Positions 8,390 to 12,961 of a DNA stretch of 64,000 bases are shown piece by piece. This DNA comes from Escherichia coli (GTDB lineage Bacteria > Pseudomonadota > Gammaproteobacteria > Enterobacterales > Enterobacteriaceae). Where the stretch lies: assembly GCF_016026235.1 (NCBI RefSeq), contig NZ_CP065613.1; one strand, 5' to 3'. Each line of letters opens with the position of its first letter. The first letter of the stretch is position 1. The notes under the pieces were generated by a model that worked only from the letters and a program-made list of their open reading frames with translations, did no database searches and was not told the DNA's origin. Made by a program: the position numbers and the translations under genes.

Positions 8390-11300
8390 ATGGCTAACTA
8401 TTTTATTGATCGCCCGGTTTTTGCCTGGGTACTTGCCATTATTATGATGCTTGCAGGTGGTCTGGCGATCATGAACTTACCGGTTGCGCAGTATCCGCAG
8501 ATTGCGCCACCGACCATTACCGTCAGCGCTACCTATCCAGGTGCCGATGCGCAAACGGTAGAAGACTCGGTCACTCAGGTGATTGAGCAAAATATGAATG
8601 GGCTTGATGGCCTGATGTACATGTCTTCAACCAGTGATGCGGCGGGTAATGCCTCTATCACTCTGACCTTCGAGACTGGGACATCTCCTGATATCGCACA
8701 GGTTCAGGTGCAAAATAAACTGCAACTCGCTATGCCTTCATTACCTGAAGCGGTGCAGCAGCAGGGGATTAGCGTTGATAAGTCGAGCAGTAATATTCTG
8801 ATGGTAGCGGCGTTTATTTCTGATAACGGCAGCCTCAACCAGTACGATATCGCGGACTATGTAGCGTCTAATATCAAAGACCCGCTAAGCCGTACCGCGG
8901 GCGTTGGTAGCGTACAGCTCTTTGGTTCCGAGTACGCCATGCGTATCTGGCTGGACCCGCAAAAACTCAATAAATACAATCTGGTACCTTCCGATGTTAT
9001 TTCCCAGATTAAGGTGCAAAACAACCAGATTTCCGGTGGTCAACTGGGTGGCATGCCACAGGCGGCAGACCAGCAACTAAACGCCTCGATCATTGTGCAG
9101 ACGCGTCTGCAAACGCCGGAAGAATTTGGCAAAATCCTGTTGAAAGTTCAGCAAGATGGTTCGCAAGTGCTGCTGCGTGATGTCGCCCGCGTCGAACTTG
9201 GAGCAGAAGATTATTCCACCGTGGCGCGCTATAACGGCAAACCTGCTGCCGGGATCGCCATCAAACTGGCTACCGGAGCAAACGCCCTGGATACCTCGCG
9301 GGCAGTCAAAGAGGAGCTGAACCGCTTATCAGCCTATTTCCCCGCAAGCCTGAAGACGGTTTATCCTTACGACACCACGCCGTTTATCGAAATTTCTATT
9401 CAGGAAGTTTTTAAAACACTGGTTGAGGCTATCATCCTCGTCTTCCTGGTCATGTATCTGTTTTTGCAGAATTTCCGTGCCACAATCATCCCGACGATTG
9501 CCGTACCGGTGGTTATTCTCGGGACGTTTGCGATCTTGTCGGCGGTCGGTTTCACCATCAACACGTTAACTATGTTCGGGATGGTGCTGGCGATAGGGTT
9601 ACTGGTGGATGACGCCATCGTGGTGGTGGAGAACGTCGAGCGTGTCATTGCGGAAGATAAGCTACCACCGAAGGAAGCGACGCATAAATCGATGGGGCAG
9701 ATCCAACGTGCGCTGGTCGGTATTGCTGTTGTTCTTTCCGCAGTGTTTATGCCGATGGCCTTTATGAGCGGCGCAACCGGGGAGATCTACCGCCAGTTCT
9801 CCATCACGCTGATCTCCTCCATGCTGCTTTCAGTATTTGTGGCAATGAGCCTGACCCCTGCCCTGTGCGCCACCATTCTGAAAGCCGCGCCGGAAGGCGG
9901 TCACAAACCTAACGCCCTGTTCGCACGCTTCAACACGCTGTTTGAAAAATCAACTCAGCACTATACCGATAGCACCCGCTCGCTGTTGCGTTGTACCGGT
10001 CGCTACATGGTGGTCTACCTGCTGATTTGCGCCGGGATGGCGGTGCTGTTCCTGCGTACACCGACCTCTTTCTTACCAGAAGAGGATCAGGGGGTATTTA
10101 TGACCACCGCGCAGTTACCTTCCGGTGCCACCATGGTTAACACCACGAAAGTGCTGCAACAGGTGACGGATTATTATCTTACAAAAGAGAAAGATAATGT
10201 TCAGTCGGTGTTTACCGTTGGCGGCTTTGGCTTCAGCGGCCAGGGGCAAAACAACGGCCTGGCGTTTATCAGTCTCAAGCCGTGGTCTGAACGTGTCGGT
10301 GAGGAAAACTCGGTTACCGCGATCATTCAGCGGGCAATGATTGCGTTAAGCAGTATCAATAAAGCCGTCGTCTTCCCGTTCAACTTACCCGCGGTGGCTG
10401 AACTGGGTACCGCGTCAGGTTTTGATATGGAACTGCTGGACAACGGTAACCTGGGGCACGAAAAACTAACCCAGGCACGAAACGAGCTGTTATCACTGGC
10501 AGCGCAATCGCCTGACCAGGTCACCGGGGTACGCCCGAACGGCCTGGAAGATACGCCGATGTTCAAAGTGAACGTCAACGCCGCGAAAGCTGAGGCAATG
10601 GGTGTGGCGCTGTCTGATATCAACCAGACAATTTCCACCGCCTTCGGCAGCAGCTACGTGAACGACTTCCTCAACCAGGGGCGGGTGAAAAAAGTGTATG
10701 TCCAGGCAGGCACGCCGTTCCGTATGTTGCCGGATAACATCAACCAATGGTATGTACGCAACGCCTCTGGCACGATGGCACCGATTTCTGCCTACTCGTC
10801 TACCGAATGGACCTATGGTTCACCGCGATTGGAACGCTACAACGGCATCCCGTCAATGGAGATTTTAGGTGAAGCGGCGGCCGGGAAAAGTACCGGTGAC
10901 GCTATGAAATTTATGGCAGACCTGGTCGCTAAACTTCCGGCAGGCGTCGGCTACTCATGGACCGGACTGTCGTATCAGGAAGCGTTATCCTCAAACCAGG
11001 CTCCTGCACTGTATGCCATTTCACTGGTCGTGGTGTTCCTCGCCCTCGCCGCACTCTATGAGAGCTGGTCAATTCCGTTCTCGGTGATGTTGGTTGTTCC
11101 GTTAGGCGTCGTTGGCGCATTACTGGCCACCGATCTGCGCGGCTTAAGTAATGACGTCTACTTCCAGGTTGGTTTGCTGACCACCATCGGGCTTTCCGCC
11201 AAGAACGCCATCCTGATTGTCGAATTTGCCGTTGAGATGATGCAGAAAGAAGGGAAAACGCCGATAGAGGCAATCATCGAAGCGGCGCGGATGCGTTTAC

Positions 11301-11503
11301 GCCCAATCCTGATGACCTCTCTGGCCTTTATTCTCGGCGTGCTGCCGCTGGTTATCAGTCATGGTGCCGGTTCTGGCGCGCAAAACGCGGTAGGTACCGG
11401 CGTGATGGGCGGGATGTTTGCCGCAACAGTGCTGGCAATTTACTTCGTTCCGGTCTTTTTCGTTGTAGTGGAACATCTCTTTGCCCGCTTTAAAAAAGCG
11501 TAA
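8390..11503 (+). CDS. mdtF: RND multidrug efflux permease MdtF
   Basis: 1037-aa 12-TM AcrB-family ORF; recalled identity. Confidence 0.9.
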
Positions 11504-11513
11504 CGTGTAAATG

Positions 11514-11549
11514 AGAGTAAGGTTGAACGTGAAGGTTCAGCCTTACTCT
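11514..11549 (+). terminator. hairpin terminator after mdtF
   Basis: stem agagtaaggttgaac/gttcagccttactct followed by tttcc, 11 nt past the mdtF stop. Confidence 0.45.
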
Positions 11550-11865
11550 TTCCTGCTAACCATTCACCACTCAACAACCAGCTAACCGTCAGGAATACCA
11601 GGCTTAGTACACAGCACTGAAAGTAGAAACCACTCCAGCCATTCGTCATCAATTTGAACAGCACAATACTGACCCACATTCCCGTAATTGTATGAATTGT
11701 CAGCTTAATAATCCCAAACATGCCGAGTCTTTTCCTCCTGAAAATACCTATACCGCCTGGCAAACTGCGAAAGAGAACTAGCCGGTAGCCCGGCAGAAAT
11801 CATCAGGGAAGAGTTTCACATGAAGCAGGTGTGAGATCCTGACCAATATTCAAATGCAAAATATG

Positions 11866-12594
11866 TCAGGAAAAGGTACCTGGCGAATGTTGCGCAAACT
11901 GATGTGGCGTTACACCATAATATTGTCGAAATGTGTTTATAAAGTACGACGTACTGCTATAGCCACATTTTTCTGCAATAGTATGCAGAGGAATTTGACG
12001 TAACTCGAGTAATCGTCTGGCCATCGACATCCTGGAGGCGAGTAATATTTTACTGAAACAGGTATTTTCATCCTGCAACTTTTTTTTGATGAGACTCTCG
12101 CTGGTATACATTCTTTCCGCGATATCGCGCAGATACCAACGTTTGGCGATATCAAAGCTAATAAGGCGTTCAACTTTTCCTGAAACAGTGCTGATGCTAT
12201 TGAAAAGTAAGGGGATCAGTTCTTTCTTATGAGAAAACATCGATAAACAGGAAAGGTAGAGCATATTGCTCAGTATCGGTGAATTTACCCCGGATTCATT
12301 GAAGCTATCAAAAATCGCCGTCACCAGCGGCATGGGGGGTGACTGGTTAATTAATAGACGGTCTTTGCTATGTAACCCTAAATTGCGTGGTAGCTGACGA
12401 ATATTTTGTAAGTAATGGCAAACTGTCAGCTCATCGATATCCAGTCGTCGCGTATCCGGTGAACAAAACGCAAAATCGTCTGCCAAATTTTTCTCCAGCA
12501 GCACGATACTCTCGTTATGCAGCGATATTTTATGCTGTTCATGATAAATATCGAATGAACGACGAATGAGGATCACCGAGCAGACATGAGTCAT
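11866..12594 (-). CDS. gadW: AraC-family regulator GadW
   Basis: 242-aa ORF with C-terminal AraC HTH; recalled identity. Confidence 0.9.
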   Translation of the reverse strand: MTHVCSVILIRRSFDIYHEQHKISLHNESIVLLEKNLADDFAFCSPDTRRLDIDELTVCHYLQNIRQLPRNLGLHSKDRLLINQSPPMPLVTAIFDSFNESGVNSPILSNMLYLSCLSMFSHKKELIPLLFNSISTVSGKVERLISFDIAKRWYLRDIAERMYTSESLIKKKLQDENTCFSKILLASRMSMARRLLELRQIPLHTIAEKCGYSSTSYFINTFRQYYGVTPHQFAQHSPGTFS

Positions 12595-12839
12595 GATTAT
12601 CCCTTATATTTCATACTGCGATTATTTCAATTTCAGTATACTAATGAAATGTTGCCAGACTGTTTCTTAGCGCAAAAACTGCCAGATTTGGTAGGACCAA
12701 AATTTATCCACAAAGTAGTTTTGCATAACAGTTAATTGATAATAAGTAAATGCAGCACGAATATATTTTCGCACAGCGTATAGCTTATGTTTATAAAAAA
12801 ATGGCTGATCTTATTTCCAGTAAAAGTTATATTTAACTT

Positions 12840-12945
12840 ACTGAGAGCACAAAGTTTCCCGTGCCAACAGGGAGTGTTATAACGGTTTATTAGTCTGGAG
12901 ACGGCAGACTATCCTCTTCCCGGTCCCCTATGCCGGGTTTTTTTT
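12840..12945 (+). ncRNA. gadY: small RNA GadY (cis-antisense to gadX 3' end)
   Basis: sequence ACTGAGAGCACAAAGTTTCCCGTGCC...CCGGTCCCCTATGCCGGGTTTTTTTT recognised from memory of GadY; ends in an intrinsic terminator hairpin plus T8; lies between gadW and gadX on the strand opposite gadX. Confidence 0.8.
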
Positions 12946-12961
12946 ATGTCTGAGTAAAATT

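Follow-up and report, generated by a model that had tools for sequence, protein, structure and literature searches.

Purifying selection on sORF15, a predicted small membrane protein encoded between mdtF and gadW in the acid fitness island of Escherichia

The window analysed here, a 64-kb stretch of Escherichia coli DNA, carries at the locus under study the E. coli acid fitness island. The genes mdtF and gadW face each other across a spacer, and a minus-strand reading frame downstream of gadW runs through this spacer into the end of mdtF. The features of the locus, in window positions, are as follows.

8390..11503, plus strand: coding sequence of mdtF, the convergent neighbour of sORF15.
11440..11503, plus strand: 3' end of the mdtF coding sequence, 64 nt antisense (by coordinates) to the last 21 codons and the stop codon of sORF15.
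11440..11763, minus strand: mechanically called open reading frame with a TTG start, 107 aa.
11440..11721, minus strand: sORF15 coding sequence, ATG at 11721..11719, 93 codons, stop TAA at 11442..11440.
11443..11571, minus strand: basic tail of the product (codons 51-93) with 11 K/R and 2 E by charge count, and a predicted third helix (AF2 helix 65-87, low confidence).
11513..11550, no strand assigned: 16-bp hairpin recognised by its fold energy, just after the mdtF stop codon and within sORF15 codons 58-70.
11572..11628, minus strand: second hydrophobic helix, TM2 (codons 32-50), with an invariant C36-C37 pair (alignment, AF2, hydropathy).
11629..11646, minus strand: loop TNGWSG (codons 26-31), in the alignment the most conserved part of the protein.
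11647..11715, minus strand: first hydrophobic helix, TM1 (codons 3-25; hydropathy, AF2 helix 2-27, and DeepTMHMM as given in PMC10746267).
11734..11739, minus strand: Shine-Dalgarno sequence AGGAGG, 12 nt before the ATG and inside the TTG extension.
11866..12594, minus strand: gadW, the gene upstream of sORF15 on the same strand.
12837..12950, plus strand: GadY, an RNA of the acid fitness island within the window.

The 501 bases around the reading frame are 100% identical to those of E. coli O121 RM8352, and the 501-base region is present in 5,414 of 5,426 complete E. coli genomes, in each case between mdtF and gadW. None of these 5,414 genomes has a gene annotated in the spacer in RefSeq, the same holds for MG1655 (NC_000913.3), and PGAP calls the frame in none of the genomes examined. 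An earlier note on this DNA had described the frame as unannotated, which is correct for RefSeq, MG1655 included, and incorrect for the literature, where the frame appeared in 2023 under the name sORF15.

The same note had placed the start of the frame at 11763, with AGGAGG about 12 nt upstream of it and a hydrophobic stretch at the very beginning of the product. A TTG-initiated frame of 107 aa does begin at 11763, but the AGGAGG (11739..11734) lies inside this extension, and its distance of 12 nt holds relative to the ATG at 11721. The hydrophobic sequence MFGIIKLTIHTITGMWV... likewise begins at this ATG and not at 11763. The ATG at 11721 is likely the start of a product of 93 aa, in agreement with the suspicion that the true product would be shorter than 107 aa. 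The block TTTTCAGGAGGAAAA and the 12-nt spacing between the Shine-Dalgarno sequence and the ATG are invariant in nine Escherichia sequences, the window included, while the DNA alignment of the spacer after gadW, upstream of the Shine-Dalgarno sequence, displays several indels, among them an 11-nt deletion. There are 11 AGGAGG hexamers in the 64-kb window, and only after that of sORF15 does a start codon with a reading frame of at least 50 aa come within 4-13 nt. The spacing of 12 nt is nevertheless long, which counts against sORF15 as a gene.

The window frame is sORF15 of Schumacher et al. 2023 (mSystems 8:e01037-23, PMC10746267) and is therefore already known. It was found in K-12 MG1655 by Ribo-seq and manual inspection of the gadW 3' UTR, and is listed in Table S7 of that paper as NC_000913.3:3663464-3663745(-). 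The window frame and the published one share locus, frame and Shine-Dalgarno context. Both encode 93 aa, of which 92 are identical; the sole difference is residue 65, R in the window and C in K-12, and the published sequence runs MFGIIKLTIHTITGMWV...KKTGTK. Ribosome footprints, which the earlier note had proposed as a check on the frame, are present in K-12 MG1655 according to the same source. Between pH 7.6 and pH 4.4 they increase by a log2 fold change of +4.2 (padj 1e-38; Tables S7 and S8) and sORF15 RNA by +4.0, both about 16-fold, alongside +3.0 for GadW footprints. Translation efficiency of sORF15 is unchanged by acid, so the induction is transcriptional. The protein, expressed with 15 nt of its native leader from pBAD24-sORF15:3xFLAG, was seen on a Western blot, and this arabinose-induced plasmid copy is the only form in which it has been detected so far (PMC10746267). 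Two transmembrane helices (DeepTMHMM) and a third, C-terminal helix were predicted there, a link to GadC or MdtF was proposed without a demonstrated function, and homologues were claimed in Vibrio, Klebsiella, Salmonella and Enterococcus.

Beyond that paper, the present analysis contributes evidence of selection, a distribution limited to the genus and a short orthologue in E. fergusonii; PMC10746267 itself contains neither a selection analysis of sORF15 nor a mention of the short form. We found no later naming or characterisation of sORF15 in the literature after 2023. The frame is also absent from the small-ORF catalogue of Stringer et al. 2021 (supplement), which targeted proteins shorter than 51 aa in cells without acid stress.

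The assignment of sORF15 to the gadW 3' UTR and transcription unit (PMC10746267) is joined by two observations in arguing for its co-transcription with gadW. A consensus scan of the minus strand between gadW and the frame found no sigma-70-like promoter, itself weak negative evidence, and in E. fergusonii the gap between the two genes amounts to 19 nt. sORF15 would then be translated from its own conserved Shine-Dalgarno sequence as the last cistron of transcripts starting at the gadX/gadW promoters. Rfam covariance models give zero matches at E<=1 for positions 11350..11950. A GC-rich stem-loop, GCCGGGCTACCGGC followed by TAGTTCTCTT (11781..11794, minus strand), lies between gadW and sORF15 and was flagged as terminator-like; lineage L003 has lost part of it, and L004 carries an altered version. 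Should it end some gadW transcripts, it would determine how much GadW is made relative to sORF15. A putative 7-bp stem, UCCUGAC/GUCAGGA (11837..11843 and 11865..11871, minus strand), encloses the gadW stop codon and is unchanged in six lineages apart from one C-to-U substitution giving a G-U pair; its loop of 21-22 nt is freely variable, and no compensatory change in the stem was seen among the lineages compared.

Lineages for comparison were sampled by anchoring on gadW instead of on the frame itself, so that degraded copies could also be recovered. The anchored sampling produced four further Escherichia lineages with gadW identities of 95-78%, and E. marmotae (L046), a very diverged Logan contig (L049) and Escherichia sp. 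E2593 (L050) were added. The 93-codon frame is intact and free of indels across its 282 nt in K-12, L002-L005, E. marmotae and the L049 contig. In Escherichia sp. E2593 residues 1-75 are in frame, and a run of T7 in place of T6 shifts the tail to give a product of 96 aa. The same T7 run, located in the region of the mdtF stop codon of this contig (PDII01000009.1), also shifts the mdtF C-terminus (1043 aa), and both gadW and gadX appear fragmented on it; the cause is either assembly error or decay of the island. Within E. coli, the intact 93-aa frame was found in all nine complete genomes spread evenly over the identity range, which differ from the window by 2-5 nt and leave the protein unchanged in eight cases. 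Metagenome contigs carry it intact in 33 of 39 instances, the remainder being chimeric contigs, one in-frame deletion of five codons and one stop at W48.

Selection was assessed on codons 1-57, since these lie outside the hairpin and mdtF. Their dN/dS values relative to the window range from 0.05 to 0.26 (Nei-Gojobori), with binomial p down to 8.5e-9; this lowest value belongs to the L049 contig, with 18.8 synonymous against 7.2 non-synonymous changes at dS 0.98. In frame, pooled pN/pS is 0.18; the shifted frames used as controls give 0.70 and 1.28. Variable sites are distributed as 20, 10 and 34 over the first, second and third codon positions. The synonymous bias across Escherichia that the earlier note had named as a sign of coding is thus observed. 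For gadW the same genome pairs give a dN/dS of 0.08-0.20, similar to that of sORF15. These comparisons show purifying selection on the sORF15 protein sequence across the genus Escherichia, as read from its substitution pattern, and sORF15 is very probably a real, selected gene. We are also fairly confident in the fuller reading, that sORF15 is a genuine protein-coding gene for a small inner-membrane protein of 93 residues and the last cistron after gadW. The earlier suggestion of a small membrane protein of the acid fitness island gains from the match to sORF15, the coding-type substitutions, the two predicted transmembrane helices and the maintenance of the frame.

An improbable alternative is that the footprints reflect functionless, pervasive translation of a long gadW 3' UTR, whose sequence would be kept for RNA reasons such as stability elements or the mdtF terminator. 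A footprint in this UTR is no proof of function, as is seen in sORF14, a 13-aa candidate (VKLFPDDFCRATG, 11778..11819, minus strand) published alongside sORF15 (PMC10746267). sORF14 is not conserved: its TAG stop codon reads AAG in L002, L004 and L005, its end is lost to the 11-nt deletion in L003, and its codons vary freely, which suggests incidental translation and not a gene. The tail of sORF15 is constrained by other elements, and the frame lacks RefSeq annotation, both of which would fit a functionless frame as well. The substitutions in sORF15, however, are three-periodic and biased towards synonymous changes in a part of the frame that no known element overlaps, the Shine-Dalgarno sequence and ATG are invariant beside an indel-rich spacer, and not one indel occurs in 282 nt over lineages with dS up to about 1. 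A search of the spacer found neither an Rfam family nor another RNA signal. Functionless translation is already largely refuted by the dN/dS result.

Relatives of sORF15 are confined to its own genus. Neither Pfam nor NCBIfam matches the protein at E<=10, and a PDB sequence search returned no match above chance level. Searches of 5.8 and 1.84 billion proteins, the latter an exhaustive HMM search of 1.84 billion representatives, revealed no relatives outside Escherichia, and a profile search including the E. fergusonii sequence found nothing beyond the genus. The homologues claimed in Vibrio, Klebsiella, Salmonella and Enterococcus (PMC10746267) were not reproduced, every named relative being from Escherichia; we suspect that the records behind that claim are mislabelled or contaminated. 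On the basis of these searches the sORF15 family is restricted to Escherichia.

One member of the family is truly diverged. It is encoded in E. fergusonii ATCC 35469 (P0050, CU928158.2), where it is annotated as a 'putative exported protein', and was found with E = 1.6e-6 among the 1.84 billion representatives. The orthologue occupies the same slot as sORF15, after gadW and convergent with mdtF, and shares the two-helix core with the motif GWSGF.F.CC. It differs from sORF15 in having only 54 aa, with two helices and no basic tail, in starting with GTG and lacking a recognisable Shine-Dalgarno sequence, and in beginning 19 nt after the gadW orthologue (62% identity). It ends 41 nt before the convergent mdtF, with a GC-rich hairpin of its own and no mdtF overlap. 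The E. fergusonii and E. coli frames have 55% nucleotide and 45-49% amino-acid identity, with synonymous sites saturated. In frame their pN/pS is nevertheless 0.30, as opposed to 0.94 and 1.45 in the other two frames. The persistence of a two-helix form in so diverged a relative identifies the two-helix core as the conserved functional unit, and the shared slot indicates, by comparison of the two loci, that the frame was tied to gadW and mdtF before the tail seen in E. coli existed. The neighbours of the E. fergusonii gene include gadE, mdtEF, hdeD, hdeAB and yhiD, with gadX and gadA not among them, which hints weakly that the frame is associated with gadW and mdtEF and not with the decarboxylase.

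The AF2 model of the E. coli protein contains helices at residues 2-27, 29-58 and 65-87, at modest confidence (mean pLDDT 64, pTM 0.28), and is consistent with the hydropathy profile and the distribution of charge. Residues T26, N27, G28, W29, S30, G31, F32, Y33 and F34 are invariant in the lineage alignment of sORF15. As judged from the alignments, the conserved unit comprises the N-terminal 50 or so residues, that is, the two hydrophobic helices and the invariant TNGWSG loop between them. The two hydrophobic segments, the six-residue loop, which carries no charge, the 11 K/R of the tail under the positive-inside rule and the modelled helices together suggest that sORF15 is probably a helical hairpin in the membrane whose two ends face the cytoplasm. 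The protein would insert into the inner membrane in the N-in, C-in orientation, which would leave the basic tail in the cytoplasm.

The earlier note was right that the 3' part of the frame runs into the terminator and coding end of mdtF: the frame crosses the hairpin at 11513..11550, and its last 64 nt are antisense to mdtF. The hairpin folds with -27.3 kcal/mol on the plus strand (z = -5.4) and -23.8 kcal/mol on the minus strand, where no T-run directly follows it, and is taken here as the mdtF terminator. Codons 58-72 lie in the hairpin region, and their pN/pS of 0.28 is hard to interpret since it overlaps with the constraint on the hairpin. Codons 73-93 contain synonymous changes only. The third codon positions of the mdtF and sORF15 frames coincide in the overlap, as read directly from the sequence, and mdtF on the opposite strand would alone enforce this pattern; the conservation of the tail is therefore inseparable from the constraints of mdtF and the hairpin. 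The E. coli-type frame has this tail only because it continues across the mdtF terminator and on into the antisense strand of mdtF. Given the 54-aa form of E. fergusonii without it, the tail may be an accessory extension, and the difference represents either a gain in E. coli or a loss in E. fergusonii.

Many frameshifted database variants, P0028, P0024, P0032 and P0039 among them, would suggest that the tail is often lost. This was not borne out, as three such alleles, queried with junctions of 40-41 nt, occur in 0 of 5,426 complete E. coli genomes, 4,952 of which match a wild-type 42-mer control. The variants are probably for the most part assembly errors, or else rare alleles. P0028 (30 Logan contigs) bears a run of substitutions from T to I/M, A to V and P to L, resembling C-to-T changes.

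The course of the frame across the hairpin allows for a reading in which translation itself, and not the peptide, is what matters. Ribosomes would carry gadW read-through across the hairpin and 64 nt of antisense mdtF, shielding the transcript from Rho or RNases, and would thereby determine how deep into the 3' end of mdtF convergent transcription or antisense RNA extends. The frame does span the hairpin and end within antisense mdtF, read-through is plausible given that no T-run follows the hairpin on the minus strand, and both convergent units are acid-induced (PMC10746267). Such a role, however, needs no purifying selection at the amino-acid level, yet codons 1-57 display it, and the E. fergusonii frame stops 41 nt before mdtF, with its own hairpin, yet conserves the peptide core. 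We consider translation as the sole role quite unlikely; it could be additional to the function of the protein in E. coli.

A still smaller chance is given to sORF15 being a hydrophobic peptide akin to type I toxins and restrained by the antisense 3' end of mdtF mRNA. The product is small and hydrophobic, its 3' part is overlapped by a convergent transcript, and genuine type I systems are present elsewhere in the window (rdlD). At 93 aa and with two transmembrane helices it is nevertheless longer than typical type I toxins, and every genome carries one fixed copy of it, as a cistron following a regulator. The spacer has no Rfam sRNA, leaving the mdtF 3' end as the only antisense RNA, and the account of the one-hour over-expression for the Western blot, in the accessible parts of PMC10746267, makes no mention of toxicity. 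A chance frame, the other possibility raised in the earlier note, has a negligible probability: antisense frames that share wobble positions with a gene tend to stay open, and about 1% of 2000 dinucleotide-preserving shuffles of the 426-nt region reach the length of sORF15 (0.95% give a frame of at least 107 codons and 1.4% an ATG-initiated frame of at least 93), but the comparative evidence and the published expression data refute it for practical purposes.

If sORF15 is a small protein of the inner membrane, as we favour, it might bind and tune a larger membrane protein of an acid-resistance or efflux system, by analogy with AcrZ and SafA. SafA (B1500) is an EvgA-induced small membrane connector to PhoQ in the acid-resistance network, with a single transmembrane helix. 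As a small membrane protein of the acid network that modulates a larger one it offers a hypothetical likeness to sORF15, from which it differs in locus and in sequence, no similarity having been detected in Pfam and NCBIfam. AcrZ, a 49-aa accessory of the RND pump AcrB, is likewise a small inner-membrane protein, acting on an RND pump, and its likeness to sORF15 is equally hypothetical. AcrZ has one transmembrane helix, against two predicted in sORF15, and with no sequence similarity between them (Pfam and NCBIfam at E<=10) sORF15 falls outside the AcrZ family. AcrZ pulls down MdtF (PMC11539335), so MdtF can bind small proteins. MdtF is our first guess for a partner of sORF15, offered tentatively at best, because it is the convergent neighbour and the adjacency is kept even in E. 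fergusonii; adjacency is the one line of evidence that ties the two together. GadC or a sensor kinase are the alternative partners. More speculatively, the two-helix core could be an Escherichia-specific accessory subunit that tunes a machine of the acid island under severe acid, whether MdtEF-TolC, in the manner of AcrZ and AcrB, or GadC, with the tail acquired by overprinting through the mdtF terminator and tying together the ends of two convergent acid-induced operons. We regard this extended scenario as unlikely.

The acid fitness island is among the most studied stress loci of E. coli, yet the reference annotations, that of MG1655 included, do not contain sORF15. The evidence of selection lifts it from a Ribo-seq candidate to a gene kept genus-wide, and the E. 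fergusonii form points to the two-helix core as the portion to study. If sORF15 does modulate MdtEF or GadC, it would represent a new component of acid resistance and of efflux-mediated drug tolerance. Deletions or tags at the mdtF 3' end, as well as 'clean' gadW deletions that remove the downstream spacer, also alter sORF15.

Two isolates carry disruptions at or beside the gene. A clinical E. coli O121 strain, 201805972 (L061, NZ_CP119441.1), which shares its serogroup with the best match of the window, has an IS66-family element (tnpA, tnpB, tnpC) inserted near codon 14, at about 11681. The insertion separates the Shine-Dalgarno sequence and start codon of sORF15 from the remainder and amounts to a natural knock-out, which indicates that sORF15 is dispensable at least in that isolate. 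In the dog isolate CUVET20-PYO4 (L053, NZ_CP115376.1) mdtF is annotated as a frameshifted pseudogene, and the adjoining sORF15 is intact.

Rfam matches elsewhere in the window include the sRNA ES205 (6987..7058, plus strand), upstream of the mdtE-mdtF region, as well as naRNA4 (CssrE) at 60999..61080 on the plus strand and a tRNA at 61176..61249 on the minus strand. Three tandem matches to the rdlD antitoxin RNA begin at 52051, 52534 and 53017 on the plus strand (span 52051..53082) and imply three copies of the ldr/rdl type I toxin-antitoxin system in the window, at a place where K-12 presumably has a single ldrD/rdlD.
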